Part shown: in pieces, positions 380 through 55,461 of the stretch
Numbering within the stretch: position 1 is the stretch's first letter
How the letters are laid out: every line of letters begins with the position of its first letter
Source of the DNA: Promethearchaeota archaeon
GTDB taxonomy: Archaea > Asgardarchaeota > Lokiarchaeia > Sigyniarchaeales > SOKP01
Direction of reading: 5' to 3'
NCBI GenBank assembly: GCA_019058365.1
Contig: JAHPZE010000001.1
Location: forward strand, 320,001 to 384,000
Length of the DNA stretch: 64,000 nucleotides
Made by a program: the position numbers and the translations under genes
Notes under the pieces: model-generated
What the model was told of the DNA's origin: nothing
Database searches by the model: none
Seen by the model: the letters and a program-made list of their open reading frames with translations, nothing else

Positions 380-1264
380 ATGAAACTAGAACCTGAATGT
401 ATTGGATGTCTTTTTAATCAAGTGTTAAAAGCATTTGAATTATTAAATCCTAATATCTCTCGTGAAGTTGTGATTACTGCCCAGAAAAAACTCATGAAAT
501 TTCTTTTAGACTTCAATATAAATGAGGTTGCCGCTCCTATTCTTGGAAAAGTGACTTATAATATCATTGCAGAGCTATTAGATAATAGGGATCCTTATCA
601 TGATCTTAAAATTGAATATAATCGTCTTGTATTAAAGTACTTCGATGATACTTTAAATTTAATTGAAAAAGCAGAAGATCCTTTATTTATAGCTATTTTA
701 GCGTCTGCACTTGGAAATACTATAGATTTTGCAGGTCAACATGATATAGATATTATTTATGACTTAGAAAACTTTAAGATCGAAAATTTAGCTATTAATG
801 ATTATGAAAAATTCCAAAAATCATTAAAAAATTCAAAACAGCTATTAATATTAGGAGATAATGCCGGTGAGATTGTTTTCGATAAAATTCTAATCATTAT
901 TCTTAAAAAATATTATCCAGATTTAGAAATAATCTATTCCGTGAGATCTGCTCCTATAATTAATGATGCTACTATTGAAGATGCGAAATTTATTAATCTA
1001 ACAAAATTAATTCATGTCATTGAGTCAAATGATGCTCCAGGAATAATTTTATCTGATGTATCAGAAGAATTTAAAGAATATTTCTATAACAAGAACACTA
1101 TTTTATTATCTAAGGGGCAAGGTAATTTCGAAAGTCTTTATGGTATGGAACTTCCCCAAAAAGATGTTTACTATTTATTAAAGGCTAAGTGTAATTTAAT
1201 GGAACGAATTTTTGAGGTAAAGATAGGAGATCTAATATTTAAAAAGAAAGAAAAGGGATTTTAA
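380..1264 (+). CDS. DUF89/ARMT1-like damage-control metal-dependent phosphatase
   Basis: N-terminal ECIGC, GNTIDF, DNAGE, INDAT, KGQGNFESL and KAKC motifs. Confidence 0.9.
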   Translation: MKLEPECIGCLFNQVLKAFELLNPNISREVVITAQKKLMKFLLDFNINEVAAPILGKVTYNIIAELLDNRDPYHDLKIEYNRLVLKYFDDTLNLIEKAEDPLFIAILASALGNTIDFAGQHDIDIIYDLENFKIENLAINDYEKFQKSLKNSKQLLILGDNAGEIVFDKILIIILKKYYPDLEIIYSVRSAPIINDATIEDAKFINLTKLIHVIESNDAPGIILSDVSEEFKEYFYNKNTILLSKGQGNFESLYGMELPQKDVYYLLKAKCNLMERIFEVKIGDLIFKKKEKGF

Positions 1265-1749
1265 TTCGTTGAATTAGTTCTTAATTTTTTAATAGCATCA
1301 GTAAAAAAACCAAAGTCTCCAATTTCAGGTTCTTTTTGGTTGTCTTTAATCCTGTTAAAATATTCTTCAATCTGTGTAAATAAAATATTTTTAAAAGAAG
1401 TGAATTGACTAACTTCATTACAATTTTCATCAATTTCAGTACGATATAATGAATAAAACATATCTAATGCTTTTTCTGCCTCTTCTCTTATTCCAAGTCT
1501 TGCAAAACCCTTATCAAGTATTGCAACAAAGATCAAGTTATATTTATATACAATAATCATTTCTACGTCGAGTCCTTTAATGTTGATCTCTTCAATCTGT
1601 CCTAAATTTTCACCAAATAAACCTAAAGCACCTACAAAAGAAGATAATAAAACAGGATTAATCTTCGTATCCAATATAAGATCGAGGAGATACTGGCCAC
1701 TCTCTTCACAAATTACAATTCCTTTAATTCCCTTATGATTTCCAGAAAT
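1261..1749 (-). CDS. Longin/roadblock-like domain protein; extended upstream of the track start, probable ATT/ATA start near 1749-1755
   Basis: Frame stays open upstream of 1674 (ISGNHKGIKGIVICEESGQYLL), followed by NPVLLSSFVGAL and a beta-hairpin pattern typical of longin-like folds. Confidence 0.55.
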   Translation of the reverse strand: MSGNHKGIKGIVICEESGQYLLDLILDTKINPVLLSSFVGALGLFGENLGQIEEINIKGLDVEMIIVYKYNLIFVAILDKGFARLGIREEAEKALDMFYSLYRTEIDENCNEVSQFTSFKNILFTQIEEYFNRIKDNQKEPEIGDFGFFTDAIKKLRTNSTN

Positions 1750-1956
1750 AATTATCCCTGTTATTAATTTAATTAATATTCTAATTAAATAAAAATAATT
1801 TTAGCTAATAAAAGCATCTAATTTATAATTTTAATAATAGGATATATTATCTGGAAAATAGTTTTATATTCAGATTATCACTTTTATATTGTTTCATAGT
1901 TTCGTGATGGTGACACATACAATAAATAATTTTATTATTAAAAGAAAAAAATATTA

Positions 1957-2808
1957 TTATTTTTCTAAAATATCTCTAATTTTTTTAACTGTGTCTTTGA
2001 AAGCTTTAGCTGATTTGCTTTCGGGGTATTTTAAAACAAATGGTAACCCTTGGTCACTTTGTTGACTAACTTCAATTTCAAAAGGAATTTTTCCTAATAA
2101 CGCAACATTGAAATCTATGCTAGCTTTTTCCGCACCACCAGGAGGGTATAAGTCAATATATTCCCCACAATGAGGACAATTAAAACCAGACATATTCTCT
2201 ATTATTCCAAGGATGCTTCTTTCCATTACCATTGCCATTTTAATTGTTTTTCTTGCATCCATTAAAGCAACTTCTTGAGGAGTAGATACAATCACCACAT
2301 TTTCATCTGGAATTAATTGTAAAATATCTAAAGTTTCATCAGATGTTCCAGGAGGTAAATCACATATTAAATAATCAAGTTCACCCCACACAGCATCCCC
2401 TAAAAATTGTCTTACGGCACTCATTTTCATAGGACCTCTCCAAATTACAGGCTCATCAGATGTAAGAGTTAAAAATGCCATACTCATAACTTTAAGTTTT
2501 AATGGTCCATCAATAGGATAAAATATCTTAGCTTCAGCGTCGACTCTTGGTTTCAACTCTGGGTTAATACCCAACATTTTTATGACATTTGGGCCTGTAA
2601 TATCTACATCAAGAATTCCTACCCTCAATCCAACACTAGCTAAACTCATAGCAAGATTAATCGCCACAGTAGTTTTCCCTACACCACCCTTCCCCGAAAT
2701 GATAACAATTTTGTGCTTTATCTTTTCCATATTTTTTTGAATGTTTTTAGTACGCTCATCCAACATCATTTCTTTTAAATTTATATCTGGAACCTGTTCT
2801 TCTGACAT
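1957..2808 (-). CDS. mrp: Mrp/ApbC/Nbp35 Fe-S cluster carrier ATPase
   Basis: SGKGGVGKT, DVDITGP, VIWRGP, DLPPGT and ENMSGFNCPHC motifs. Confidence 0.93.
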   Translation of the reverse strand: MSEEQVPDINLKEMMLDERTKNIQKNMEKIKHKIVIISGKGGVGKTTVAINLAMSLASVGLRVGILDVDITGPNVIKMLGINPELKPRVDAEAKIFYPIDGPLKLKVMSMAFLTLTSDEPVIWRGPMKMSAVRQFLGDAVWGELDYLICDLPPGTSDETLDILQLIPDENVVIVSTPQEVALMDARKTIKMAMVMERSILGIIENMSGFNCPHCGEYIDLYPPGGAEKASIDFNVALLGKIPFEIEVSQQSDQGLPFVLKYPESKSAKAFKDTVKKIRDILEK

Positions 2809-3048
2809 TTATTTAATCACCTTAATTTTCATCTAAAAATATTTATTTTATTATTATTTAATTTGAGAAACAAATGTATTGCTTTAATTCTATCGTTAAT
2901 AAATTATGAAATTTTCTGAGTTTTCAATTATAATTATAATTCCTACTGCGAGAAATTTATAATACATAAACTAAAGAAATTAATAAATCGCAGAATATTA
3001 TTCATAACTGAAAAGAGAAGAATAATTAATTTTTGAAGGTGTTTTTGA

Positions 3049-3534
3049 ATACCAGTAAGTAATTTCATGGAGCTCTATAAATTTTTACCTAAAACCAACT
3101 GCAAAAAGTGTGGGAAACCAACTTGTATGGCTTTTGCATTAGATTTGTTACAAGGAAAGGTAAAAATCGATGATTGTAGTCCACTTTTAGAACCTAAGTA
3201 CAAAAAGAATTATGATGCATTAAAGAATTTAATAGGTTCTGAAGAGGGAAAGGAAAAGGAGCTTAAAATTGATGTAGATACCGAGTTATGTGATGGATGT
3301 GGAATTTGTGTGACTGTATGTCCAGTTAATGCAAGGTATTGCCCTCCGACCTTAAGTGGTAAAGCTCCAGATTATCCCCCCGAAAATCACCAATTGTTTC
3401 AAGTTAAGGATGGAAAATGTGAACTATTAGCTATAAAATATTGTCGAAGAATCGAAGCGGAAGGGCGAGAAAGAGAATGTCGGGTTTGTGAAACCTATTG
3501 TCCACGAGAAGCTATAAAAATTGATTATGTTTAA
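3049..3534 (+). CDS. Fe-S domain (CdhE/AcsC N-terminal type) fused to 2[4Fe-4S] ferredoxin; Fwd-associated electron-transfer subunit
   Basis: LPKTNCKKCGKPTCMAFA, CDGCGICVTVCP and CRVCETYCP; SD AGGTG at 3037-3041 favours ATA at 3049 (ATG at 3067 is the alternative). Confidence 0.75.
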   Translation: MPVSNFMELYKFLPKTNCKKCGKPTCMAFALDLLQGKVKIDDCSPLLEPKYKKNYDALKNLIGSEEGKEKELKIDVDTELCDGCGICVTVCPVNARYCPPTLSGKAPDYPPENHQLFQVKDGKCELLAIKYCRRIEAEGRERECRVCETYCPREAIKIDYV

Positions 3535-3571
3535 TTTTATTCTAAGAATCTTTATAAGAGTGTAATAAATA

Positions 3572-4879
3572 ATGGTTAGTGAACGTATTACATGTTCTGG
3601 ATGTTCGCTTCTATGTGATGATATTATTATTAGAAGTGATGGTTTATATATTGATGAAGTAATTGGAGCTTGTTTGAAAGGTAAAGAGAGATTTGACCAA
3701 ATTACATCAAAGAACAGAATATTATCTCCTCTAATAAAAGAAGATGGAGAATTACAGAAAGCAACATTTGATGAAGCTTTAGGAAAAGTTATTAAAATTA
3801 TAAAGAACTCTTCTAAACCTCTTTTATATGGCTTTTCCACCACAAGTTGCGAAGCTCAATTAAAAGGTATTGATCTCGCAAAAACGATAAACGGCTTTAT
3901 AGATTCTAATTCTACAATCTGTCAAGGAAAAGTACTAAATATTTCAAAAGAAACGGGAATAACGCTAACAACTATCTCAGAAATTATAAATAAAGCAGAC
4001 TTATTGATGTTATGGGGAGCAAATGCAGCTGAATCAATACCACGTTTATTAAATAAGGTACTATTTTCACGGGGTAAGTTTAGAATGACTGGGCGAGAAA
4101 TTAAAACTTTAATAGTTATAGACCCAGTTAAAACAGCCTCTTTTGGAGTAATGGGTGTACGAGATATAGCACTTCAAATTGAACCAGGAAAAGATATTGA
4201 TTTGATTCGTGTTTTAAAAGAAGAATGTTGTGTAGCAGATAGTGTTCCAAACAATGGCGTTGCTGGTATAGATAAAGATGATCTAAAAAGATTATTACTC
4301 CATTTAACTGGTGCTGAAAATGGAGTAATTATAATTGGTCAAGGCATTTTAAGTTCTCAGAATAGTCCTAATGTAATTAAAGAGTTACTTGAATTAGTGC
4401 AATTAATAAATGTTAAGCAAAAAAAGGGACGCATTTCTATCATGATGTTAGGCGGTCATTATAACATGGTAGGTTTTGACCATGTTGCACTTTCAATATG
4501 TGGGAAAAACCATAGCTTACAATTTTTAAATAATCAATTGATTGAATCAAAAGAAACAATCGTCTCAAAAATTGAAAATGAAGATTTTGATTGTTCTATA
4601 ATTGTAGGAACGGATCCAATTTCGCATTTACCTTGGCAATTAAGTAAAAAATTGATGGCAAAACCTTTAATCCTAATCGATAATAAACAATCCGCAACCT
4701 CGTACGTAGCAGACATAATAATACCTTCAGCAATCACTGGAATTGAAAGTGGAGGATTAGCTTATCGTTTGGATCATATTCCAATTGAATTGAAAAAAAT
4801 CATAAAACCACCAAACGACATTCTTTCTGATGAAGAAATATTAACTAAAATTATGTATGGATTTAAGGAGGGTAGATAA
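3572..4879 (+). CDS. fwdB: Formylmethanofuran dehydrogenase subunit B-like (divergent)
   Basis: CSGCSLLCDD..GACLKG Fe-S motif, PLLYG..TSCEA, ADLLMLWGAN, GHYN and GIESGG.AYRLD. Confidence 0.75.
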   Translation: MVSERITCSGCSLLCDDIIIRSDGLYIDEVIGACLKGKERFDQITSKNRILSPLIKEDGELQKATFDEALGKVIKIIKNSSKPLLYGFSTTSCEAQLKGIDLAKTINGFIDSNSTICQGKVLNISKETGITLTTISEIINKADLLMLWGANAAESIPRLLNKVLFSRGKFRMTGREIKTLIVIDPVKTASFGVMGVRDIALQIEPGKDIDLIRVLKEECCVADSVPNNGVAGIDKDDLKRLLLHLTGAENGVIIIGQGILSSQNSPNVIKELLELVQLINVKQKKGRISIMMLGGHYNMVGFDHVALSICGKNHSLQFLNNQLIESKETIVSKIENEDFDCSIIVGTDPISHLPWQLSKKLMAKPLILIDNKQSATSYVADIIIPSAITGIESGGLAYRLDHIPIELKKIIKPPNDILSDEEILTKIMYGFKEGR

Positions 4880-4886
4880 AATAGAA

Positions 4887-5246
4887 ATGATAGTAAATAC
4901 AGTTAGAATAATGGATTACGATCAAGTAAAGGAGTATTCTTTAGGAGATGATACCTCTCTTACAGAAAATTTGGCGATTGGATTATTAAATCCAGAAGAT
5001 TTTAAAAATCTTAATTTAACTGCAAATGCAAATTTAAAAATAAGTAACAAGTATGGTAGTGTTATTATAAAGCCAATTCAAGATAAAAATGTTCCTATAG
5101 GAATTATTAATATGCCAGTCTCCATTTGGGCTAATCAAATTACTGGACTCGAGAAGAGTGAAATAGTATATAAAAATTTAAGCGTAAATGTGGAAGTAAC
5201 TTCAGACTCAGTAAAGAACGTAAAAAGTCTATTAAATATAATTTAA
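4887..5246 (+). CDS. fwdD: Formylmethanofuran dehydrogenase subunit D-like (molybdopterin dinucleotide-binding domain)
   Basis: LNPEDF...ISNKYGSV...VPIGIINMP..IWAN; ATG at 4887 follows GGAGG; lies between fwdB and fwdA. Confidence 0.75.
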   Translation: MIVNTVRIMDYDQVKEYSLGDDTSLTENLAIGLLNPEDFKNLNLTANANLKISNKYGSVIIKPIQDKNVPIGIINMPVSIWANQITGLEKSEIVYKNLSVNVEVTSDSVKNVKSLLNII

Positions 5247-5272
5247 ACAAATAGATAAGGGGATTATTAGAA

Positions 5273-6937
5273 TTGAATAAGCTAATTATCAAAAATGGTT
5301 TAGTGTTTGATCCCATCAACGATATTAATGGAGAAACAAAAGATATTTTAATTGAGTCTGGTAAAATAGTAGAAAAATTTAGCAGTGAAAGTAATGTTAA
5401 AGAAATAAATGCAAAGAATAGGAGTGTTATCCCCGCAGCTCTAGATATCCATACACATATAGCTTCTCAACAAACTAATTGGGCGCGATTATTAGGGTCA
5501 AATAACAAAAAATTCCAAGAGAATTGGGAAGGATTAACACTTAAAAACATTACAAGAAATTATATTTCTAATGGATACACATTTATACTTGAAGCTAATG
5601 TGTTTCCATCTTTAGCGAGAGAAACTATTTTTAATTTTAAACAAATACCTGTACTTGATAAGGCAATGTTATTAAATGTAAGTAATCTATGGCCTTTAGA
5701 ACTAGAATTTCAGAGAAAAAAAATTGATGAGATGGCAGTATTTCTATCTGACCTTCTATCAAAAACATATGGTTTTGGTTTCAAAGTCTATAATCCATTC
5801 GAAAATGAAATATGGAATTTTAAAGAACTAAGAGATGATTTAACACAACAAGGACGATTGTACAATTTTTCAACAATGGATGTGTATGAAAACCTTCTTA
5901 GATGCAATGAAAAACTTGGAATGCCTCATTCTCTTCATGCTCATATTGAAGGTTATGAAAATGCAACTGGCAAGAATAATCTCTTTGTTATTTTGGAAAA
6001 GATTAAATCATTAAATTTAACTCCCAATCAATATATAGGAAGAGATCACATTTTTCATATTGCTCATGCTAATACATATAACTATGATGGGGATAATGAG
6101 AATTTAATTAATTTTTTAAATGAAAATCATGATTTTTATATTGATCTTGCATTTCTAAGCTTCAATCCAATAAATCCATTAATAACTTCAGACAGAAGAC
6201 TTATACATTCGATGTTAACATCTGATATAATCGATAATCCGCATAAATTAATTAGTTCAGCTATAGAATTTGAAGGAGATTATTTTATTTCAATGAGAAA
6301 TTTAAACAAAAATAATTATGTTAATTGTAATTTATGGGCTAATGCTATCGATTTAGCATTAAATATTAAAAATAAATTTCAAGTTAGTTTTTCTTTAAAT
6401 TTTCCTAATTATGCTAATATTTCTGATATTCCTGAAATTGCGACATGGTTAACAAGTAAGGAAGCTCGCGATAATTTCATGAAAGATATGAATACTGATT
6501 TCCTTAATAACCATCCTTTAGCTAATGACGATAAAGAACTAAAATTTCCAGAATTAATATGGTTAACAAGAATAAGTCCAGCAAAATCCTTAGGTTTATC
6601 AAGGATCAAAGGAAATCTTGGTTTAGATGCAGATGGCGATCTAAATATCTTAGATACGAATATTAATGAAATAGATCTCTCTAAAGACCATAGAAAATTA
6701 AGGAATGCATTACAAAATATTGAATATGTTATAAAATCAGGAGTAATTGTTAAAAAACAAAATGAATTCAATTTCAGTCATAATGGCTCAATTTTCTGGT
6801 CTAACGGAAAAGTTAACGTAAAAGAAAAAGATTTTATTATGTCTAAAAAAAAGGAATTTTACCAAAAGTATTCCTCTCTTTTTTATGATTCTTACAAAGT
6901 TTCGGTTGATAAGAATCTATTAAGAAGAGTTGATTAA
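5273..6937 (+). CDS. fwdA: Formylmethanofuran dehydrogenase subunit A-like amidohydrolase (divergent)
   Basis: IIKNGLVFDP, DIHTH, GFKVYNP, HSLHAH and PAKSLGL..KGNLG..ADGD. Confidence 0.75.
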   Translation: MNKLIIKNGLVFDPINDINGETKDILIESGKIVEKFSSESNVKEINAKNRSVIPAALDIHTHIASQQTNWARLLGSNNKKFQENWEGLTLKNITRNYISNGYTFILEANVFPSLARETIFNFKQIPVLDKAMLLNVSNLWPLELEFQRKKIDEMAVFLSDLLSKTYGFGFKVYNPFENEIWNFKELRDDLTQQGRLYNFSTMDVYENLLRCNEKLGMPHSLHAHIEGYENATGKNNLFVILEKIKSLNLTPNQYIGRDHIFHIAHANTYNYDGDNENLINFLNENHDFYIDLAFLSFNPINPLITSDRRLIHSMLTSDIIDNPHKLISSAIEFEGDYFISMRNLNKNNYVNCNLWANAIDLALNIKNKFQVSFSLNFPNYANISDIPEIATWLTSKEARDNFMKDMNTDFLNNHPLANDDKELKFPELIWLTRISPAKSLGLSRIKGNLGLDADGDLNILDTNINEIDLSKDHRKLRNALQNIEYVIKSGVIVKKQNEFNFSHNGSIFWSNGKVNVKEKDFIMSKKKEFYQKYSSLFYDSYKVSVDKNLLRRVD

Positions 6938-17947: not shown

Positions 17948-18313
17948 TCAAAACCATTCGGTCGCATCTGCTTCTAATACCAAATCATTTAAGGTTGCAG
18001 CTCCAACAATTTTAACTCCTGGTATTAAATCCACTTTTTCCCAACCTAGCATTCGTTTAGATGCTTCACAAACTAAAATTTCAATACCCATGCTAAGAGT
18101 TTTATCAATCATTTCCTTTACACTTGGAAAACCACCCAACTTAATTTTTTCAGCTTCTCCGGTTTTTAAAATTCTTAATCCTGTGCCCAAATAGTATACT
18201 ATAGCTTTAATGTTCATGGCTTTTGCTGTTTGAGCTAACACTAATGGAGAATATTGACGTTCTGGGTCATGTGAGGTTTGTACATATAAAATTGTTTTTT
18301 CTTTTTCAGTTAT
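17948..18313 (-). CDS. DsrE/DsrF-like protein (probable ATA start at 18313)
   Basis: Upstream frame gives ITEKEKTILYVQTSHDPERQYSPLVLA; LVCEAS and IVGAATL motifs; SD GAGGTGA contains an in-frame TGA. Confidence 0.75.
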   Translation of the reverse strand: MTEKEKTILYVQTSHDPERQYSPLVLAQTAKAMNIKAIVYYLGTGLRILKTGEAEKIKLGGFPSVKEMIDKTLSMGIEILVCEASKRMLGWEKVDLIPGVKIVGAATLNDLVLEADATEWF

Positions 18314-18557
18314 AATTACTCACCTCTGAGTTTTTAAAAGATTTTATTTTATAAGAAATTTATTTTTTTCTAATAATGCTATAGTCAATTGCTAAACGAA
18401 ATTAATAAATCTCCCTTTTATAATTCAGAAAAAAAGTTAAAATTTTACGAAATAATTATAATATTATTGAACCTAATAAATATTCCTATTTAACTTCGAA
18501 ATTTCTTATAATATAACAACTGTTGGATGAGCAGTCTATAAAATCTTACCTATTATA

Positions 18558-24791: not shown

Positions 24792-26828
24792 ATGTCTGAG
24801 ATACAGACCATGGTGAGAATTGGAGTATATATCTGTAGATGAGGAGTTAATATCAGTACTTCTATCGACTGTGATCTTATTAGAGATTATGTTGAGGCCC
24901 TCCCAAACGTTATTGTTGCTAAAGTAAATGATTTTACTTGTAGCGATCCAGGACAAAAAATTATCAAAAACGATATTTTAGATTTAGACTTAAATCGAGT
25001 GGTTGTTGCAGCTTGTACACCTAAAATTCACGAATCCACCTATCGATTAGTTTTAGTTGAAGCAGGATTAAACCCATATTACTTCCAAATGGTTAATCTT
25101 CGTGAGCATTGTTCATTTACTCACTCGGGAAATAAGAGAAAAACTACTGAAAAAGCTATAAGGTTAGTGCAAGCAGGGATAAATCGTGCTAGAGAATTAG
25201 AGATAGTACCTTATAAAAAATTATCAGTAGAGAAATCGGTATTAATTATCGGTGCGGGTATTGCGGGAATGAATGCAGCATTAGATTTAGCAAATCAAGG
25301 AATAAATGTATATTTAGTCGAAAAAGAAGCTACAATTGGAGGTAAAATGGTACAATTAGATCGAATTTATCCCACAGACGATTGTGCTATATGAGTTCTA
25401 GCACCTATTATGGTTAGTACTTCAAAACATCCAAATATAACCTTATTTACTTGTAGTGAAATCATAAAATTTAGTGGCAACACTGGAAACTATAATGTTA
25501 TAATACACAAAAAAGCCCGGTATGTTAATGAAAGTAAATGCACGGGTTGTGGATTATGTACTACAAAATGTCCAATAAAGGTACCTAACGAATTTGATAG
25601 AGGTATGGGTGAACGAAGCGCAATTTACATACCTTTTCCCCAAGCAGTACCTAAGGTTGCTTTAATTGATAAGAGTGTTTGTATAGATTGCAAAAGTTGT
25701 GAAAAAATTTGTCCCGCAGAAGCTATTGACTTAGATCAAACCTCAGAATATATAGATTTAAAAGTTGGTGCAGTCATTATTGCAACGGGATGGGATGAAT
25801 ATCCAATTATGAAAAATAACGAATATAAATATGGTATTTATCTTGATGTTATTACTCAAATAGAATTGGAACGAATGTTAAGTCCAGTTGGACCAACTGG
25901 GGGTCATGTATGTAGAATTTCTGATGGAAAAATCCCAAAAACAGTCGCGATGATTCAATGCGTGGGTTCAAGATCCTTAAACGGGAATCCCTATTGCTCA
26001 GGAGTATGTTGTAATGTTGCACTTAAAAACGCTCAATTGTTAAAACATGAATATCCTGATATGGAAATTGTTATTTTTTATATAGATATGCGGACATGGG
26101 ATAAAGGAAATGAGGAATATTATAGAAAAGCGAGAGAAGCGGGGATAATGATGATTCGAGGAAAAGTAGGAGATGTAAGACAAGATCCCAACTTAAAAAA
26201 AATAAAAGTTACAGCTTCTTCAACTTTAACAAATGATTTTATTACAATGGATACCGATTTAGTTGTATTATCTACGGGAATGGTCCCCTCTAAAAAAACA
26301 ACACAAATCGTTGAGACTTTAGGAATTGCTAAAGATATAAATGGGTTTTTAACTGAAGTTCATGGATGCCTGAAACCTCAAGAGACAAATAATTTGGGTA
26401 TATATATATGTGGCTGTGCTGCTGGACCTAAAAATATCCCTTATTCCGTGTCAACTGCATTAGCTGCTGCAAGTAAAGCATCTACTTTACTCTGTAAAGA
26501 TACAATAACTCAAGAATTAATCATCGCTGAAGTAAATGAAAATTTATGTATGGGTTGCCATAGATGTGAAAAACTTTGTAATTATAATGCAATAAAAGTT
26601 AATAGAGAGAATATAGCTATAGTAGATGATTTAAAATGTAAAGGGTGCGGAGTTTGTGTATCATCATGCCCCGCTAGAGCAATTGATCTTAAATACTATA
26701 GAGATAAGCAAATTAGTGAAGAGATAAGAGGGATCTGTAGTACTGAACTTGAATATAAGGAAGAATATATTGAATCTATTGATCTTATTTGGAAAAAGAT
26801 TGAAGCATTAGCTCCTTATCAAACATAA
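24792..26828 (+). CDS. hdrA: Heterodisulfide reductase subunit A, selenoprotein with two in-frame UGA (codons 17 and 201; 678 aa)
   Basis: Single frame from ATG 24792 (SD AGGTGA at 24781) through TGA 24840-42 (GVYICR*GVNI) and TGA 25392-94 (DDCAI*VLAP) to TAA 26828; the in-window paralog has Cys at both sites (CRCGINI, DCSLCILAP). Confidence 0.9.
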
Positions 26829-32997: not shown

Positions 32998-33129
32998 TTA
33001 TTCCTCGATATACCATTCAAAATACCCGCATTTAGAACATACATATGTTCTAACATTAGGCGCAGTACGTCTGTATACATAATCATTATTTTCCAACATT
33101 GCCCCACATTTATTACAAAATTCTTTCAT
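32998..33129 (-). CDS. Small zinc-ribbon protein (43 aa, not in the ORF track)
   Basis: MKEFCNKCGAMLENNDYVYRRTAPNVRTYVCSKCGYFEWYIEE; two CxxCG motifs; ends 6 nt before the HdrD-like start. Confidence 0.75.
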   Translation of the reverse strand: MKEFCNKCGAMLENNDYVYRRTAPNVRTYVCSKCGYFEWYIEE

Positions 33130-33952
33130 TTCTCTTTTTTCTACTAAAATGCGTATATCACCTTTTTTTTTAAACAGGATTAATTAAATAATTTTAAAAA
33201 TTTCGTTTCCTCTTAATTTTTATAAATTTTCAAAATGATCTATCTCTAAGATGAAAAAGGTAATCCACATATAAAAATCCTTGCACTGAATTTTTCTCTT
33301 CTAGCATTTCATTGATTGAATATAATATCTCTATGTTAGAGATCTAATCATTTTGATTTCTTTAATAAGAGAATTATTTAATTATAGGAAAAATAATGAT
33401 AAAATTAGATAATTATATTTTTGATTTATAAATATTAATTAACATTATTATAGATAAATATAAAATATTTAGGAAAATTTACAGATTTGTTATATTTTAC
33501 ATTACAGATTTGTCTATATATGCTGATAAAAAATTATAAATTTATCGTAATGAATCGACTTTTTGAGTAAAAAATACCATGTAAGTTGAAATTAACCATT
33601 CTATTCTTGATACTTAAAATCAAAAAACAGTTGAAATGTTGAAATTATTTATTTGTCAAAAAATTTGACAATTTTTATTTTCAATTTAAATTTAGAAAAA
33701 AGGGTTATTTTAGGAAAAAGTCAAAATAGTCAATATTTCTAATGAAAATAAAAATTATAGAAAATAAGTTTTGAAAAATAAATTTGTCAAAATGATAAAA
33801 ATTTTTCTTATCAAACTATTTAAATTCTAATCAGATTATTATATAATTAGAATTAGTCTCATGCCTCAGAAAGATGGAATGGGTTCATCTTAAGAGGTTA
33901 TGATAGTTATATTAAGAACTATTAATAAAAAAGAAAAAAGAAGGGAATTAAA

Positions 33953-36497: not shown

Positions 36498-37853
36498 ATG
36501 TTAGAAAATAAAAAAAAAGAACAGATGAAATTCATTTATCCAGAAACTTTAATTTCTCCAGATGAAATTGAAATTTATGGAAAGGAAGAGAAAGAATTAA
36601 TCCCAGAAACAAATCCATTCGAAATGGCAAAGAAACAAATTGATATTGTTGCCAAAGAGATGTGTTTAAATGATAATATAAAAAAATTCCTTAAAAGGGT
36701 AGAGCGTTCCTTAATTGTATCGATTCCAATCAAAATGGATGATGGAGATCTTGAGATATTCGAGGGATATAGGGTACAACATTCAACCCTTCGTGGTCCT
36801 GGTAAAGGAGGTATTAGATTTGCTCCAAATGTTAATCTTGATGAAGTTAAAGCATTAGCTACTTGGATGACTTGGAAATGTAGCCTATTATGTTTACCTC
36901 TGGGGGGAGCAAAAGGAGGTATATGTGTTGATCCCAAGAAATTATCAAAAAACGAGTTAGAAAGATTAACTCGGAGATATACAACAGAAATAATAAATGT
37001 TATAGGTCCAGATATAGATATTCCTGCTCCAGATGTAAATACTGACCCTCAAATCATGGCTTGGATTATGGATACTTATTCTATGCATAAAGGGAGGGCT
37101 ATTCCTGGAGTTGTAACAGGGAAACCAATAGAAATAGGGGGTTCAGTAGGGAGAGAAACTGCTACTGGAATGGGGTTATTTTTTGTACTCGAAGCGTTAT
37201 GTACTAAAATGAATATAGATCTAAAAACCCAGAGTATTGTTGTACAGGGATTTGGTAATGTTGGGGGAAATATTGCTCAAATTTTATATGATAAAGGCTG
37301 CAAAATAATTGCTGTGTCAGATATAAGTGGAGGTTTATACTCAAATAGAGGATTAAATATTAAAGAATTATTAGAGTGGAGAGATGGGAAAAATTACTTA
37401 AAGGATTTTCAGAATAAAGATTATAATTATATCAGTAATGAGGATATGCTAATGTTAAGATGTGATATTCTAATTCCCGCAGCAATGGAAAACCAAATAA
37501 CGAAAGTAAATGCTAATAATTTAAAATGTAAAGTTGTATTAGAAGGTGCTAATGGCCCAACTACTCCAGAAGCAGACGATATTTTGAAAAAAAAAGGAAT
37601 AATAGTAGTGCCTGATATTCTTGCTAATGCTGGAGGTGTATGTGTCTCTTATTTTGAATATATTCAAGATATTCATAGCTATTTTTGGAAATTAGAAAGA
37701 ATTAATCATGAATTAAAGAATATCCTTGTTAATACATTTGAGAATGTTTACATATTATCAAAAGAAAAGAATGTTACCTTACGAATAGCCTCTTATATGA
37801 TTGCTATTGCAAGATTAGCTAAAGCAATTGAACTGAGAGGAATTTTCCCTTAG
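36498..37853 (+). CDS. gdhA: Glutamate dehydrogenase (Glu/Leu/Phe/Val family)
   Basis: GYRVQH, GPGKGGIRF, GGAKGG, DIPAPDV, VTGKP, QGFGNVG, EGANGP and PDILANAGGV. Confidence 0.93.
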   Translation: MLENKKKEQMKFIYPETLISPDEIEIYGKEEKELIPETNPFEMAKKQIDIVAKEMCLNDNIKKFLKRVERSLIVSIPIKMDDGDLEIFEGYRVQHSTLRGPGKGGIRFAPNVNLDEVKALATWMTWKCSLLCLPLGGAKGGICVDPKKLSKNELERLTRRYTTEIINVIGPDIDIPAPDVNTDPQIMAWIMDTYSMHKGRAIPGVVTGKPIEIGGSVGRETATGMGLFFVLEALCTKMNIDLKTQSIVVQGFGNVGGNIAQILYDKGCKIIAVSDISGGLYSNRGLNIKELLEWRDGKNYLKDFQNKDYNYISNEDMLMLRCDILIPAAMENQITKVNANNLKCKVVLEGANGPTTPEADDILKKKGIIVVPDILANAGGVCVSYFEYIQDIHSYFWKLERINHELKNILVNTFENVYILSKEKNVTLRIASYMIAIARLAKAIELRGIFP

Positions 37854-38749
37854 GCTTTATTTTTTTTTTCTATATTAAAATTTATTTTATGAGTCATTTT
37901 AAAAATATCTATAAAACTTGAAACATGCATTGGTAATTGTATTCCATTCATAGTTTTAATTTCTTCATTAACAAATCTCCAAAGATTTTTCTCATTTATA
38001 GCAATAATTTTTACTAATAAATTATGATCCCCGGTTGAAGAGGCAACTAATTGAATCTCCTCATAACTGGCTAACTTTTTTGCGACATCATCCAATTTCA
38101 GTGGATCAACAGAGAGACCAAGAATGGCTATAGATTCATATCCAACTTTAAATGGATCTACAAGTGTATCGAATTTTCTTATTATACCCTCTTTTATCAT
38201 ATTTTGCACTCGATTATGTATAGTACTAGCAGCTAGATCTACTTTTTTACTTAAATCTTTATAAGAGATTCTATAATTTTCCTGTAAAGAATTAAGAATT
38301 TCTTTATCTTTTTCATCGAATTGCATTTTTAGAGCTTTTTCTCTAGTCTTTTCACTTTCAATTCTGTGTCTTTCAATAGCATAGATTATTGATCGTATTA
38401 AACTTGGTCCATTAAGCTCACCTTTCACTAAATAATCTTGAGCTCCTTTTTGAAGAGATTGTAATGCAAAATCCTTATCATCTAACCCTGTTAAAACAAT
38501 TATAGGAATCTTATCAGTTACACTCAAGACTTTTTCTAAAGTGGATTCTCTATCACTATCTGGTAAAGTTAAATCTAATAAAATAATATCAAATTGTTTA
38601 GTTTTTAGATTATTTAAACTGTCAGAAAGCCGAGGATGTGATTCTAAATTAAACTTGAAGTCCGCAGACTTTTTTAATAATTCTTCAATAAGACGTACAT
38701 CAACAGAATTATCTTCAATTAGTAGTATATCAAGTTTCTTATTCTCTAT
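37850..38749 (-). CDS. Response regulator: receiver domain fused to Lrp/AsnC HTH and RAM domain (probable ATA start at 38749)
   Basis: Upstream frame gives ILLIEDN...ILLDLTLPD; then IIVLTG..DYLVKG; then DEKDKEIL..ISYKDLS..AASTIHNRV. Confidence 0.85.
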   Translation of the reverse strand: MENKKLDILLIEDNSVDVRLIEELLKKSADFKFNLESHPRLSDSLNNLKTKQFDIILLDLTLPDSDRESTLEKVLSVTDKIPIIVLTGLDDKDFALQSLQKGAQDYLVKGELNGPSLIRSIIYAIERHRIESEKTREKALKMQFDEKDKEILNSLQENYRISYKDLSKKVDLAASTIHNRVQNMIKEGIIRKFDTLVDPFKVGYESIAILGLSVDPLKLDDVAKKLASYEEIQLVASSTGDHNLLVKIIAINEKNLWRFVNEEIKTMNGIQLPMHVSSFIDIFKMTHKINFNIEKKNKA

Positions 38750-39114
38750 AATTATTCACCCATTTTTTTTTTTGTAAATTATATTAAAATTAAAATCTTT
38801 TTCAATTCTTTTTTCGTCATTCTGAATAATATTCAATTTAATATAAATAATTATTATATTTATAAACCGAACAGGGTAATATAAGTTATAAAATTTTTAA
38901 GGTTACAATGCAATTTATAATTATTTCTATAAATTTTAAACTGAAATCTCATATTCTGTACTAAAAATTATGCTATTTTTATTCGATAAAATTTATTTTG
39001 TTTTGGACAATATTCTAATTAAATAAGAATTTTTCTTAGGATCTTAAAATTTATGATTTTCTATGAATCTTTTTAAAAAACTCAAATTAGCAAATATATA
39101 ATAAAAGATGGGAG

Positions 39115-44863: not shown

Positions 44864-44866
44864 TTT

Positions 44867-48968: not shown

Positions 48969-48982
48969 TTAGTTATACCTAA
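48969..48982. promoter_or_regulatory. DtxR-family-like operator upstream of feoAB
   Basis: TTAGTTATACCTAA matches TTAGG-N4-CCTAA with one mismatch; DtxR gene nearby. Confidence 0.55.
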
Positions 48983-49298
48983 AAAAAGAGGTTTTTTCTT
49001 TAGTTTCTTATAGCTATTTATAGAATAAAGAAAATAATTAACCTAAAAATAATAAGTGAATTCCATAATTCGCAAAATTAAAGAAATCGTAAAGATTCTC
49101 TACATATTATTATAAGACAATGAAAGAAAAATTTTAATAGAATTATTCTGAATAATGATTCATAATAGAATTCTTTCTAAATGCATTCTATTCAAAAATG
49201 GAGGATAATGAATAATCATTCAATAACATTTAAAAGTTACCATTACTTATATTTAATTAAAAAAAAATAATAAAATTTTAAGAGGTGAAAGAATCAAT

Positions 49299-49679: not shown

Positions 49680-49722
49680 TTCTTTTTTATTTTTTTTTAC
49701 TTTTTAAGAGGTAGATGGCCAA

Positions 49723-50103
49723 ATGATTGAGATTCATGAAAGTTATGAAAATTATTTAAAAGCAATATATTTAATCTCTAAAAGAAATAAAGGTGGGTGG
49801 GTATGCAATTCAGAGATTTCAAATTACCTAAATGTTAAACCCCCTTCTGTAACTGACATGTTATATAAATTAAAGGCAGGAGACTTAATAGATTGGAGTC
49901 CAAGAAAATCTTTAAGATTAACGAAAAAAGGAAAAATAATCGCTCAAGATGTAATTAAAAGCTATAAGAATTTATGTAATTTTTTTAGGAATGTTTTAAA
50001 AATAGAAAACAGAAATTTAATAAAAAAATTATCTTGTGAAATTGAGCATCATTTAACTCCAGAAGTATCTGATGCTTTAGAAGATCTACTTCTTGAATAT
50101 TAG
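49723..50103 (+). CDS. DtxR/MntR-family metal-dependent regulator
   Basis: ENYLKAIY, VKPPSVTDML, LTKKG and CEIEHH. Confidence 0.9.
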   Translation: MIEIHESYENYLKAIYLISKRNKGGWVCNSEISNYLNVKPPSVTDMLYKLKAGDLIDWSPRKSLRLTKKGKIIAQDVIKSYKNLCNFFRNVLKIENRNLIKKLSCEIEHHLTPEVSDALEDLLLEY

Positions 50104-50129
50104 TAAAATTTAATTTTATATTTATAAAA

Positions 50130-51077
50130 TCAATTCTTATCCTTATTTAAATTTAATTTCCAAAAGATTTGCTTATTATAGAGAGTATCTATAATCTTTT
50201 TTTGAGATTTAAGTTTTTTTAACTGTGAAATAATTTTATCTTCATCAAAATTAGAAGAAGAAAATGTTTCAATAATTTGATCTTGCCTCATTGGATGTCT
50301 CTCTAGTATTGATAAAACTTCTTTTTCGAAATCTGATGAATAAATATTGAATTTTCCTACCTCCGGAAAATTAATATTAGTGTAATCAACGAAGATTTCA
50401 TTTAAGATTGAAAGTATGCTCTTATCAGGAATTTTTACCCATTTTTCTACTGGGGGCCTTATCGGAACATTTATATCAATTCTATCTGGTTTTATCAACT
50501 CTAGTTTTTCTTTAATTTTTAATAATTCTTCTTTTGTGTCATTAATCCCTTTCATTAACATTACTTCTATCCAAAATTTACCCATGAATTTTTTCCTAAA
50601 ATCTATAAATCCTTGAATTAGATTATTAAAGCTAATAGAGGGGTGAGGTCGATTTATTCTTATGAATGAGTTTTCATCCCAAGCATCCAAACTTGGTAGA
50701 ACTACATCTGAAGAAATTAACGCATTCTGAACTTCTTTATCATAAAGCAAACTTCCATTAGTAATCACACAAACAGGTTTTTCAGATAACTCTTTAGCTC
50801 TTATGATCAAATCCTTTAAATCTTTATATAGTGTAGGTTCCCCACTCCCTACAAATGTTATATAATCAAATTTATTTTCATTTAATTTGATTGCTTTTTC
50901 GATTTCAGTTAAAATTTCTTTCTTTGGGAAATAATTTTTCCGGATATTAGTAAAGTTGTTTGTTTTTCCTAATTGACAGTAGATACATTGAAAATTACAC
51001 GTTTTAGAAGGAATTGGATCAATCCCTAAGGATTTCCCTAATCTCCTGCTAGGAACAGGTCCATATACATATTTCAT
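50130..51077 (-). CDS. Radical SAM protein (YGPVPSRRLG family)
   Basis: CNFQCIYC, GSGEPTL and ITNGSL. Confidence 0.88.
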   Translation of the reverse strand: MKYVYGPVPSRRLGKSLGIDPIPSKTCNFQCIYCQLGKTNNFTNIRKNYFPKKEILTEIEKAIKLNENKFDYITFVGSGEPTLYKDLKDLIIRAKELSEKPVCVITNGSLLYDKEVQNALISSDVVLPSLDAWDENSFIRINRPHPSISFNNLIQGFIDFRKKFMGKFWIEVMLMKGINDTKEELLKIKEKLELIKPDRIDINVPIRPPVEKWVKIPDKSILSILNEIFVDYTNINFPEVGKFNIYSSDFEKEVLSILERHPMRQDQIIETFSSSNFDEDKIISQLKKLKSQKKIIDTLYNKQIFWKLNLNKDKN

Positions 51078-51099
51078 GTTTTTTTATTGGGAACCCATA

Positions 51100-51582
51100 T
51101 TAAGAACTTTGAATCTTGTATTTCTCAATCGCGTGTTTTAAAGTAGTTACTGCTAATTCAGCACAATGTTTATGATCATCAGGTAAGCCACCTAAAGCAT
51201 TTTCAACATCAATTGGTTGTAAATTCTCAGCAAATTCTAATGCTTGGCCTTCTACCATCATAGTAGTTTGACTTCCCGCTGCTACTGTAGCACCACAGCC
51301 ATCTGTAATAAAATTTGCTTTTTCAATTATACCTTCCTTAATCCTCAGAAAGAATTGCATTGTATCTCCACATGTTCCTTCATATGCATGCCAAACACTT
51401 ATTTCATCATCCTTTGGTTTTCCCCAATTTTTTGGATTTAGAAGTAAATCAACAATATATTTATTATACCGTTTAATTTCCTCTTCAATAATTTCTTTCT
51501 GAATTTCCTCTACCCATTTATCTAAATTGTCTAGTGGCATTTTATGATTACCTATTAAAGGCTTTTTTGATGTACAATGCAT
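51100..51582 (-). CDS. NifU/IscU-like Fe-S scaffold
   Basis: GTCGD, DGCG and HKHCA Cys triad; start may be ATG at 51540. Confidence 0.85.
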   Translation of the reverse strand: MHCTSKKPLIGNHKMPLDNLDKWVEEIQKEIIEEEIKRYNKYIVDLLLNPKNWGKPKDDEISVWHAYEGTCGDTMQFFLRIKEGIIEKANFITDGCGATVAAGSQTTMMVEGQALEFAENLQPIDVENALGGLPDDHKHCAELAVTTLKHAIEKYKIQSS

Positions 51583-51626
51583 TACTTAGGATTAAGTAAT
51601 TTTTAAAATATAAAAAAATTATTCTT

Positions 51627-52499
51627 TTATTTTTCCAATATTTCTCGAATCTTTTTAACCGTTTCTTTAAAAGCCTTTGTCGATATACTATCAGGATATT
51701 TTAATATAAAAGGCATTCCTTGATCTCCCTGCTGACTTACCTCAATTTCGAAAGGAATTTTACCTAATAGTCGAACATTAAAATCTTTCGCCGCTTTTTC
51801 TACTCCTCCTGGAGGATAGAGATCAATATATTCTCCACAATGGGGACAATTAAAACCAGACATGTTTTCAATAATACCAAGTATTTGTCGTTCCATTATC
51901 TGAGCCATCCTTATTGTTTTTCTAGCATCCATTAAAGCAACTTCCTGCGGGGTTGAAACTACTACAACATTCTCATCGGGAATGAGTTGAAGGATATCTA
52001 GCGTTTCATCGCTGGTGCCGGGTGGTAGATCGCAGATCAAATAGTCTAATTCTCCCCAAATTGCTTCGCCTAAAAATTGCCTCACAGCACTCATCTTCAT
52101 TGGACCTCTCCAAATAACTGGTGAGTCTGAACTTTCAATGAGAAATGCCATACTCATTGCTTTAAGATTTAATGGCCCATTTACAGGATAAAATCTTTTT
52201 TTATCAGGATCAACCCTTGGTTTAAGATTTGGATCTACACCCAACATTTTTAATACATTTGGCCCTGTTATATCTACATCTAAGATTCCAACTCTCAGTC
52301 CAACGCTTACTAAACTCATAGCGAGGTTTACAGCTACTGTTGTTTTGCCCACTCCACCTTTACCAGATATAACAACTATTTTATGTTTAATTTTTTCCAT
52401 GTTTTTTTTTATATTTTCTTCTAATTCATCCATCTTTTCTTTCTTTCCTTGCTCGACTGTTTTCTTCAAATCGATATCTGGAATATCTCTTTCTTGAAT
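51627..52499 (-). CDS. mrp: Mrp/ApbC Fe-S carrier ATPase (close paralog of 1957-2808)
   Basis: Same motifs; SD GAGGTG and paralog N-terminus favour ATT at 52499 (track uses TTG at 52526). Confidence 0.9.
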   Translation of the reverse strand: MQERDIPDIDLKKTVEQGKKEKMDELEENIKKNMEKIKHKIVVISGKGGVGKTTVAVNLAMSLVSVGLRVGILDVDITGPNVLKMLGVDPNLKPRVDPDKKRFYPVNGPLNLKAMSMAFLIESSDSPVIWRGPMKMSAVRQFLGEAIWGELDYLICDLPPGTSDETLDILQLIPDENVVVVSTPQEVALMDARKTIRMAQIMERQILGIIENMSGFNCPHCGEYIDLYPPGGVEKAAKDFNVRLLGKIPFEIEVSQQGDQGMPFILKYPDSISTKAFKETVKKIREILEK

Positions 52500-52639
52500 A
52501 TTCTTGCACCTCTTATTTGTAATCAAATTTAATGGTTAAATTTATATATTTTCAAATTTTGTTAATAATTGATAATGAATAATTATTCATTAAATTAAAA
52601 ACTTATGAATTGAAAATTTAAAAAAAAGGTTAGAAAAAA

Positions 52640-53083
52640 ATGAGTATTATTGCAATTCCTTCATTGGGTAATGGAGGCTTAAATGATCAGATGAGCCCTC
52701 GTTTTGGGAGATGTGCTAGTTTTACATTTGTTGAAGTTGAAAATAACGAGATTAAAGCTGTAAAAACGGTTCCAAATCCCGCAGCAAATGCTATGGGGGG
52801 AGCTGGTGTGCAAGCAACTCAGATTATTGGTAATAATGGTGCTAATGCTATAATAGTAGGATTCCTAGGCCCTAATGCTTCTAGTGGACTTAATGCTTTA
52901 AATATACAAATTTTTCAAGCTCCAAATCAAACAATTACAATAAAAGAAGTCTTGAATCTCTATTTAGAAGGAAAATTACAACCAATTACTACCTCAAATG
53001 TCGCATCACACTATGGAATGGGAGGTGGTGGACGGGGTATGGGCGGCGGTGGCAGAGGCATGGGAAGAGGAAATCTACCCTAG
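52640..53083 (+). CDS. NifB/NifX-family protein with GGGR tail
   Basis: IAIPS, RFGRC, NP...GGAG and GPNA. Confidence 0.88.
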   Translation: MSIIAIPSLGNGGLNDQMSPRFGRCASFTFVEVENNEIKAVKTVPNPAANAMGGAGVQATQIIGNNGANAIIVGFLGPNASSGLNALNIQIFQAPNQTITIKEVLNLYLEGKLQPITTSNVASHYGMGGGGRGMGGGGRGMGRGNLP

Positions 53084-53122
53084 AAAAGCTAGCGATTAAT
53101 TAGAAAATAAAAGATATCTCTA

Positions 53123-54046
53123 ATGAATAGCAAGAAATCCAAAATAATATGTATTACCGGAGGAAAAGGAGGAACAGGTAAAACATTATGTGCTGTAAAT
53201 ATTGCTATAATGTTCAAAAACGAAGGAAAAAAAGTTCTTCTTATAGATGGTGATGTAGAAAATCCTAATACATATTTATTATTAAATGGAAAACTTGAAA
53301 ATAAAAAAGATGTTCCTTTTTTCAAACCTAAAATTAATGAAGATAAATGCTCCAAATGCGGATTATGTGCTAAAAATTGCTTAGCAAATGCGCTTTTACA
53401 TATTAAAGATGCTTTTCCAATTCCAATCTTGACTGTTTGTTCTGGATGTCAGTTATGTTATAAGATCTGTCCTGAAAATGCAATTGAAGCAGATTCAAAA
53501 ACAATAGGGTTTATTTATTCAACAAAAATAAATGGACTCTCACTTTTTCTAGGTGAATTAATGCCTTCAGAAGCTAGATCAGCTGCAATTGTAGAAGCAC
53601 TTCTTGAAAAATTCGAAGAGATTCTTGAAGCTGAACCTGAAAAATTTGATATTATCATTTTAGATACTGCTCCTGGTGCGCATTGTGATGTGGAACTTTT
53701 AATAGCTAATGCAGATATTGTAATTCCCATAACAGAGCCAACTAAGTTCGGTAAATTAGATTTAATTAGGATAATGGAATTGATTATGTTATTAGGCAAA
53801 GAATCTCGAGTGATAGTAAACAGATCTTCATTATTAGGATTTAGAGACCAATTTTTAAAAGAATTAGAAGAAGAAAACATAAAAATTTTAGGTGATATTC
53901 CCTTGGATTCGGATATAGTAGAATCTTACTGCCAAGGAACACCGATTATGGATAGCAACAGTGTGTTCGATAGAGAGGGTGCTGGTTATAGAGCTTTTAA
54001 TAAGATTTATGAAAATTTAAAAAAATGGTTAGGAATAATTAAATGA
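53123..54046 (+). CDS. MinD-like P-loop ATPase with inserted 2[4Fe-4S] ferredoxin
   Basis: GGKGGTGKT, DGDVENPN, CSKCGLC, CSGCQLC, DTAPG..C and EPT.FG. Confidence 0.88.
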   Translation: MNSKKSKIICITGGKGGTGKTLCAVNIAIMFKNEGKKVLLIDGDVENPNTYLLLNGKLENKKDVPFFKPKINEDKCSKCGLCAKNCLANALLHIKDAFPIPILTVCSGCQLCYKICPENAIEADSKTIGFIYSTKINGLSLFLGELMPSEARSAAIVEALLEKFEEILEAEPEKFDIIILDTAPGAHCDVELLIANADIVIPITEPTKFGKLDLIRIMELIMLLGKESRVIVNRSSLLGFRDQFLKELEEENIKILGDIPLDSDIVESYCQGTPIMDSNSVFDREGAGYRAFNKIYENLKKWLGIIK

Positions 54047-54056
54047 CCTATAAAAG

Positions 54057-54998
54057 TTGAATGAGTTTATGGACAGAAAAATAGTAGGCATTGTTTCAGG
54101 GAAAGGAGGTGTAGGTAAAACATCAATAACAGCTTCATTAGCAAGTCTTGCAGAAAAAGATCTAGAAATCCAAGTAATTGTAATGGATTGTGATGTTGAT
54201 GCTCCGAATTTAGCTATTATTCTTCCTCCTGAGGATGAATCCACAATAAAAAAAGAAGATACTTTTACTACGAGGAAAGCAGAATTTATAGAAAACCAAT
54301 GTACTAATTGCAAACAATGCATTGATGACCATTTTTGCGAATTTAATGCTTTAAAATGGGATAACCAAAATTCAATTCCTATAATAGATGTTTTAAAATG
54401 TGAAGGGTGTGGAGCTTGTAAAGTTTTATGTCCAGAACATGCTTTTGAAATACATCCGGTAAAAAGTGGAGAAATAATTTCATATAATAGTAAGATGGGT
54501 GTTCCTTTAATTTATGGTAAAACTCAATTAGGGAGCACCACATCTGGAAAATTAGTATCAGATGTGAAGGAATTTTTAAGTAATTCTGAAAATTTTAACA
54601 ATAGCAACTTAATATTAATTGATGGACCCCCTGGAATTGGTTGTCCAGTAATTGCGACTATTTCAAACTTAGATTATGTTATTACAATCTCTGAACCTAC
54701 ACCTTCGGGTTTGCATGATTTATTGCGAGTAATAGAAGTTATTCAACATTTTGCAATTCCATTTGGGTTAGTCATAAATAAATCAGATTTAAAAAGCACT
54801 TTTCAAGAAGATTTTAAAAAATATATTAATGAAACAGGATATACAAAATTAGGAAAAATACCATTTGATTTATCGATCCCAGAAGCAATGTCTTTTGCCC
54901 AACCAGTTGTAGATTTTGCCCCAGATTCTAAAGCAAGTTTATCTATTAATAATATTTATAAAAATTTAAAAGAAGTTTTATGGAATAATATTCAATAA
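54057..54998 (+). CDS. MinD-like P-loop ATPase with inserted ferredoxin (second of pair)
   Basis: SGKGGVGKT, DCDVDAPN, CEGCGAC, SGKLV, DGPPGIGCPV and EPTPSGLHDL. Confidence 0.88.
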   Translation: MNEFMDRKIVGIVSGKGGVGKTSITASLASLAEKDLEIQVIVMDCDVDAPNLAIILPPEDESTIKKEDTFTTRKAEFIENQCTNCKQCIDDHFCEFNALKWDNQNSIPIIDVLKCEGCGACKVLCPEHAFEIHPVKSGEIISYNSKMGVPLIYGKTQLGSTTSGKLVSDVKEFLSNSENFNNSNLILIDGPPGIGCPVIATISNLDYVITISEPTPSGLHDLLRVIEVIQHFAIPFGLVINKSDLKSTFQEDFKKYINETGYTKLGKIPFDLSIPEAMSFAQPVVDFAPDSKASLSINNIYKNLKEVLWNNIQ

Positions 54999-55041
54999 AA
55001 CTAAATGCCTTATATTAAACTATTTCACATAAAATAAGAAT

Positions 55042-55461
55042 TTAAATATATTCTCTAACAAAGAAATAGACATTTTTAGAATTGCATTCTACGCAATTAA
55101 CTTTTCCATCCTTTGATGCAGTGGGATCTTCCCATTCATGATTACAATCTAAACATCCATATCCTTTAAAGCTTAATTTATAATCAAAATTCCCACCATA
55201 GACTTTAATTTCTTTCCCCTCAAGCAAGGCTAAAGTATTTTTCTGATGGGCACTTTCAAGAATTCTTGAAAAAGTAGGTTGACTTATTCCCATTCTTTCA
55301 GCAGCTGCTTTCTGATTCAAGCCTAAATAATGTTTTAATCTCATAGCTTCAAATTCAGCAACAGTTATTATAATTGAATCTTTTATTTTATTAGAAACCC
55401 CAGTGAAATAGGAATTATTAGGTGGCTGATTAACCCATCGTCGATGTCTGTTTCTTCCTAT
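55042..55461 (-). CDS. DUF134-family HTH regulator with C-terminal Zn ribbon (probable ATA start at 55461)
   Basis: Extended N-terminus IGRNRHRRWVNQPP..EFEAMRL, Q..AA..MGISQPTFSRIL, C..C..C..C. Confidence 0.85.
   Translation of the reverse strand: MGRNRHRRWVNQPPNNSYFTGVSNKIKDSIIITVAEFEAMRLKHYLGLNQKAAAERMGISQPTFSRILESAHQKNTLALLEGKEIKVYGGNFDYKLSFKGYGCLDCNHEWEDPTASKDGKVNCVECNSKNVYFFVREYI

Follow-up and report, generated by a model that had tools for sequence, protein, structure and literature searches.

The window analysed here is a 64,000-nucleotide stretch of DNA from a Promethearchaeota archaeon (Lokiarchaeia; Sigyniarchaeales), positions 320,001 to 384,000 of contig JAHPZE010000001.1 (C16:320001-384000 of a 4.74 Mb assembly with 29.5% GC, labelled G000). 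In this genome, genuine translated genes very probably start at near-cognates of AUG, mainly AUA and AUU but also AUC, CUG and ACG, with the ordinary initiator Met-tRNAi(CAU). At the level of comparative genomics, I am confident that the strongest cases start at ATA, ATT or ATC (together ATH). What appears to set these starts apart is a well-placed Shine-Dalgarno (SD) sequence; no clear lesion was seen in the parts of the initiation machinery examined. An earlier note, drawn from the letters of the window, had named six such codons, and all of them are in place: ATA at 18313, 38749 and 55461 (minus strand) and at 3049 (plus strand), and ATT at 52499 and 1749 (minus strand). Individual comparison genomes carry G-numbers below; f1 denotes the archaeon's own family and f2 another family.

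Four genes of the window, those for DUF134, DsrE, a receiver-Lrp regulator and an Fe-S protein, make highly convincing candidates for ATH starts. The DUF134 gene (139 aa; 55042..55461, minus strand) has its proposed start at ATA 55461, at a spacing of 6 from the SD GGTGA (55468-55472). This arrangement of ATA and GGTGA recurs in 15 further genomes of the genus, and ATA is also found in one f2 genome, while four genomes have ATG exactly there, in most cases behind a changed SD. The first ATG, GTG or TTG would cost 39 residues, and the Pfam DUF134 match runs from residue 2; identity figures for this extension are blurred by linker indels. Furthermore, the NCBI record of a relative's DUF134 protein already begins at ATA.

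The DsrE-family gene (121 aa; 17948..18313, minus strand) would begin at ATA 18313 behind the SD GAGGTGA (18320-18326). Its orthologs mostly interchange ATA and ATT; G024 and G033 have ATG in this place. The extension is 81% identical, with 146 synonymous against 98 non-synonymous differences, compared with 23% identity upstream; the first canonical start would cost 24 residues, and the Pfam DsrE match begins at residue 8. In the receiver and Lrp/AsnC regulator (REC-Lrp, 299 aa; 37850..38749, minus strand), the candidate start ATA 38749 follows the SD GGGTGA (38756-38761), and the orthologs have ATA in eleven cases, ATC in one and ATG in one. Here the first canonical codon, a TTG, would remove 74 receiver residues, among them the acidic pair in LLIED and the phospho-Asp strand DIILLD, and the Pfam Response_reg match starts at residue 8, inside the extension. 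For both genes, amino-acid identity falls from about 80% downstream of the candidate start to 23-32% over the ten codons that precede it.

These results bear out the claim that an essential N-terminus lies upstream of the first ATG, GTG or TTG in DsrE, REC-Lrp and DUF134, the Pfam matches all beginning inside the extensions. The observation that the TGA inside GGTGA closes the frame is correct for all three genes, but it does not count as separate evidence, since it is a geometric outcome of spacing 6. The Fe-S/ferredoxin protein (161 aa; 3049..3534, plus strand) differs in that its probable start, ATA 3049, stands right after an in-frame TGA, with the SD AAGGTG at 3036-3041. All 12 orthologs have ATA or ATT immediately after the stop, and the extension shows 95% identity with 14 synonymous and 3 non-synonymous differences. 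Thus codon, SD and orthologs uphold the note's proposal for this gene, although only 6 residues are at stake and the TGA directly precedes the ATA.

Across the orthologs, which the note had suggested comparing, ATH occupies the site in most and ATG in few. The N-terminal mis-annotation that it anticipated is also found, the public collection holding shortened forms of 100, 97, 225, 155, 137 and 294 aa for this contig. NCBI translation table 11 formally allows ATT, ATC, ATA and CTG as starts, but most pipelines do not call them, and shortened forms therefore dominate the public collection.

Genome-wide signal and essential genes

The 16S rRNA of this genome ends in GATCACCTCCT, so that GGAGGTGA is the cognate SD. 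Among long open reading frames (ORFs) closed by a nearby stop, ATH makes up 34 of 104 codons placed 6 nt behind GGTGA and 47 of 493 at frame-matched spacings (0, 3, 9, 12 and 15, which likewise keep the TGA in frame; Fisher test, p=1.3e-8), an enrichment of the kind that the earlier note had proposed to look for. A bare count of GGTGA-N6-ATH without ORF context was dropped, since coding background swamps the signal. When all 61 codons were tallied behind an SD match of at least 5 nt at spacing 5-7, the excess was +208 for ATG, +51 for TTG, +25 for ATT, +22 for ATA (concentrated at spacing 6), +14 for GTG, +8 each for ATC and CTG, and +3 for ACG. GC-rich codons overlapping the SD letters reach +3 at most, and A/T-rich control codons show no excess or a deficit (deficits for AAA, AAT and TTA). 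A clear SD excess is therefore confined to ATG and its near-cognates.

ATH accounts for about one sixth of strongly SD-led starts. The ratio of ATG to ATH among SD-led genes is about four to one, which indicates that selection still favours ATG. The idea of relaxed start-codon selection in this lineage thus survives in part: near-cognate starts are supported, but ATG remains dominant and ATH almost always comes with an SD at spacing 5-7.

An independent count used 1.2 Mb of the relative G006 (median protein identity 78%), which gave 698 informative G000/G006 pairs. A start was called forced when a conserved extension of at least 8 residues preceded the first canonical codon and a near-cognate codon lay behind an SD. 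This holds for 15 of the 698 pairs, and for about four more on inspection. Scaled to 4016 ORFs, it corresponds to about 85-110 genes, roughly 2-3%, as a lower bound, with short extensions and small genes excluded. A few extensions that the pair test called forced turned out to be nonsense-split genes or spurious ORFs and were rejected. Forced extensions contain 147 synonymous and 100 non-synonymous differences, and the ratio in gene bodies is 1.33:1. Of about 22 coding-like forced extensions, 12 follow an SD match of at least 5 nt, compared with 33 of 239 ortholog-confirmed ATG starts and a background of 2.8%.

The third base of near-cognate starts differs in 5 of 10 comparisons, and in 44% for internal Ile codons, an interchange like that of a synonymous site. 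Near-cognate starts do switch to ATG or CTG more than internal Ile codons do (1.6% to ATG). Reversion to ATG at ATH start sites runs at about 4-18% depending on the set, next to a neutral G frequency of 9.4% at fourfold sites. A one-way test, with ATG in the partner and ATH in G000, yielded few events because ATH is usually common to both genomes.

Essential genes are included. In the S10-spc ribosomal protein cluster of this genome, the single-copy genes uS14 (GGTGA-6-ATA) and uL15 (AAGGTGA-6-ATT) have no canonical start; both start sites lie 17-19 nt after the upstream stop, and near-cognate starts are forced in relatives too. Across 17 f1 genomes, 16 of 314 genes in the cluster are forced, representing six different proteins, with uS14 contributing 9 of the 16. 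The corresponding figure for 24 other Asgard genomes is 2 of 401 after removal of false calls; outside f1, uL6, uL24 and Rpp29 had been called automatically but were discarded, as they have a canonical codon at the first conserved column or immediately behind it. This suggests that forced starts are enriched in f1, whose members, being kin, are not independent. Outside f1, the range is drawn from this cluster, the initiation factor aIF1 and a few other loci.

The aIF1 gene (L001; G000 C35:130394-130609, minus strand) is single-copy, and its putative start is an ATT 9 nt behind GTGA. None of the genus and family members examined has an ATG here, and ATT is conserved within the genus as well as in three further genera of f1. 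Elsewhere in Asgard archaea, aIF1 starts with ATA, TTG, CTG or GTG in many lineages and with ATG in others.

Other genes of the window

The second Mrp/NBP35 paralog (Mrp-2; 51627..52499, minus strand) has a probable start at ATT 52499 behind the SD GAGGTG (52507-52512). ATT is found in 6 of 6 orthologs and aligns with the ATG of the paralog Mrp-1, as the earlier note had proposed, but the start is not forced. This genome also has an in-frame TTG at 52526, 9 codons further upstream, which is absent or stop-blocked in some orthologs, and in two orthologs an ATG stands 2 codons upstream; because of these codons, initiation at ATT 52499 is only probable.

For the longin/roadblock-like gene (1261..1749, minus strand), the note's start near 1749 holds in so far as an upstream start appears to be required, the 25-residue extension being 74% identical in 12 orthologs. 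The exact codon is ambiguous among three adjacent ATH codons (ATA 1755, ATT 1752 and ATT 1749), and the SD, AGGGA at 1755-1759, is weak. An Atlas lead connects this gene to a Roadblock/Fuz_longin cluster in which the Pfam family is found on 22% of members. The QueG-like Fe-S protein (311 aa; 60507..61442, minus strand), suspected of using another near-cognate codon, has ACG at 61442 as its candidate start, with the SD AAGGTAA at 61449-61455. The site is ATG in G005 and G006 and ATT in G014. The ACG is present in contigs of about 80x depth and looks like a recent strain-level change. A small Cys-rich, zinc-ribbon-like gene (32998..33150, minus strand), which the note had not listed, probably starts at ATT 33150, at spacing 7 from GGTGA (33158-33162); its only 2 orthologs have ATT (G006) and ATG (G002) at this site, and an ATG lies 7 codons downstream. 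Four window genes have a divergent upstream neighbour, so that translational coupling is not needed.

At 4845-5246 of the window (plus strand), an ATA at 4881 behind AGGAGG aligns with the ATG of orthologs; a further ATG comes two codons on, and the listed start, ATG 4857, is upstream of the SD. The HdrA-like frame at 24792-26828 (plus strand) has two in-frame TGA codons (24840 and 25392), the first of which is kept in three relatives. They fall at what I take to be Cys positions of HdrA motifs, and the frame is probably a selenoprotein split in two or three by gene callers. Beyond these, conserved genes near C16 64655-65002 (minus strand) and near C18 9344 (plus strand) are interrupted close to the N-terminus by an in-frame stop that is missing from the relative, which points to nonsense changes as the likely origin.

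Mechanism and alternative explanations

What could allow these codons to serve as starts? A strong SD would pair with the 16S 3' end (GAUCACCUCCU) and set the codon in the P site at a spacing of 5-7 nt, with a peak at 6. This pairing may hold the codon there long enough for Met-tRNAi to be accepted despite one mismatch, which would give an N-terminal Met. AT mutation pressure (29.5% GC) would turn ATG into ATA or ATT, tolerated mainly where a strong SD is present, with selection favouring ATG overall in a mutation-selection balance. As a possible addition, aIF1's own AUU start may set the level of fidelity through a negative feedback loop like that of bacterial IF3.

Nothing unusual marks the initiator tRNA, which has A1-U72, three G-C pairs, the anticodon CAU and an intron at 37/38. 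(ARAGORN takes this tRNA, with its intron, for a tRNA-Ser.) The assembly yielded no elongator tRNA-Met. The genome encodes KsgA, aIF2beta and two aIF1A, its uS9 ends in Arg, and its 16S P-site motifs appear standard. The two aIF1A paralogs (G000 C39:290132 and C34:200899) both have Lys-rich N-terminal tails. aIF1 keeps the LQGD motif and the basic loop, which contacts the 30S subunit in Pyrococcus abyssi (PMC6237735). Its only conspicuous change is the loss of an otherwise conserved EG after beta-2, replaced (V-I-T-F) only in f1 and f2 among the families aligned; f2 has the change too, without a forced ribosomal case seen there. A Tyr-to-Trp change in loop 1 was considered as a cause and rejected, being widespread in Asgard archaea.

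Several points weigh against this explanation. No clear lesion was found among aIF1, KsgA, the uS9 tail, aIF1A, aIF2beta and the 16S P-site motifs. The genome-wide figure comes from a single partner genome, of which about a third was sampled. Finally, an output of 1-2% of AUG, the E. coli level, would be too low for ribosomal proteins, and efficiency would have to be higher here.

It is conceivable, if rather unlikely, that AUH codons are actively selected, as a regulon of about 100 genes answering to an aIF1 level that is set by aIF1's AUU start; this would add to the mutation-selection account. The absence of ATG from aIF1 in the genus and family members examined, and its non-ATG starts in many other Asgard lineages, are consistent with such a regulon, as is the strong hold of some genes on one codon (DUF134, with ATA in 16 genomes). 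However, reversion to ATG is close to the neutral G frequency, and the affected genes have no obvious common function. I hold with equal reserve the fuller proposal that AUH codons in f1 initiate well enough to serve ribosomal proteins and that their use is tuned by the aIF1 AUU feedback, making the roughly 100 genes a fidelity regulon.

Editing of the mRNA back to AUG, or a protein beginning at a canonical codon downstream or upstream, seems quite improbable as a general account. Another start could serve in single cases, such as the TTG upstream of Mrp-2 or the ATG 6 codons downstream in the Fe-S gene, but downstream starts would remove catalytic or structural residues, and the upstream side is closed by stops in nearly all orthologs. 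To my knowledge, no single editing chemistry turns AUA, AUU, AUC, CUG and ACG all into AUG, which weighs against editing.

Slightly less probable still is a special tRNA that reads the AUA start, namely a tRNA-Ile(UAU) without detectable TiaS. Such a tRNA, with two introns, lies at G000 C34 about 25519-25694 (minus strand), and its arm is matched in 22 of 23 family genomes; a search for the TiaS domain gave no match in 40 Lokiarchaeia but did so in 14 of 19 other Asgard genomes. However, the tRNA has G1-C72 and its anticodon stem is without the three G-C pairs of an initiator, a UAU anticodon leaves the ATT, ATC, CTG and ACG starts unexplained, and G139 and G159 have TiaS, yet their aIF1 starts at ATA. 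Moreover, internal ATH aligns with Ile and not Met: in the pooled data, Ile is retained at 76% of aligned sites and ATG stands opposite in 1.6%. For this reason, and because tRNAi has CAU and tRNA-Ile(UAU) exists, reassignment of AUA to Met, as in a mitochondrial-type code, was rejected. A separate observation is that TiaS and a UAU-type tRNA arm are both matched in G138 (C1:666750).

The least probable alternative, start-codon loss in decaying genes or assembly error, could draw on the QueG-like ACG, seen only in this strain, and on the few nonsense-split or spurious ORFs of the pair scan, but the same codons recur in many independent assemblies, frames are intact with a synonymous bias, and the involvement of single-copy uS14, uL15 and aIF1 excludes decay. 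Neither of the doubts that the earlier note had raised about itself, consensus error and decay in genes whose relatives keep ATG, is borne out. At the sites compared (52499, 55461 and 61442) there are zero differences in the contigs of about 80x depth (run X1, possibly the source sample), a second sample of the same study agrees at 55461, and 16 other genomes have the same DUF134 codon; ATH is common to relatives, in essential single-copy genes likewise. Conservation in independent assemblies is a stronger argument against error than contig depth.

Precedents and implications

In E. coli, infC (encoding IF3) and pcnB, both with AUU, are the only two confirmed non-canonical starts, and AUH gives 1-2% of AUG output (10.1101/063800). 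The genes described here resemble these two in having AUH behind an SD, a coding N-terminus before any AUG, GUG or UUG, and a one-mismatch codon at an AUG-like SD spacing. As with infC, the gene of a fidelity factor itself has a near-cognate start at AUU (IF3 there, aIF1 here). Unlike E. coli, the archaeon would have about 100 such genes against two, ribosomal proteins included, with archaeal aIF1 and aIF2 and with AUA as common as AUU.

A closer precedent is AtubA of Kariarchaeaceae, which has an ATT start with a plausible ribosome-binding site; the deposited protein lacked the first beta-strand, and the start was corrected by hand (PMC13394414). In both situations an Asgard protein was deposited short and an upstream ATT lies behind a ribosome-binding site, but AtubA is a single gene from another Asgard class, called rare and described without genome-wide or lineage analysis. 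In Haloferax, near-cognate sites seen by Ribo-seq were putative alternatives that the authors set aside (PMC7261190), whereas the Lokiarchaeia ATH codons appear to be conserved main starts. This tubulin apart, no systematic description of non-canonical starts in Asgard or other archaea was found, most subscription journals lying outside the search. Archaeal starts are usually listed as AUG, GUG and UUG; these are the ones named in the available text of a review of archaeal initiation, in which SD sequences are a minority in Lokiarchaea (PMC7531240). The anti-SD, tRNAi and factors are those of SD-led archaeal initiation in general, with its proofreading by aIF1 (PMC7531240, PMC6237735).

In databases, about 2-3% of the proteins of such Asgard genomes would be shortened or overlooked, with consequences for domain calls, structure prediction and heterologous expression. 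Conserved AUA and AUU in essential genes and aIF1 imply that a mismatch at the third position is no bar to efficient acceptance by the archaeal initiation complex, given SD positioning. This offers a handle on aIF1 proofreading and autoregulation in the lineage closest to eukaryotes. If true, an aIF1 regulon would give the archaeal relatives of eukaryotes a prokaryotic counterpart to the eIF1 autoregulation and non-AUG control of eukaryotes themselves.

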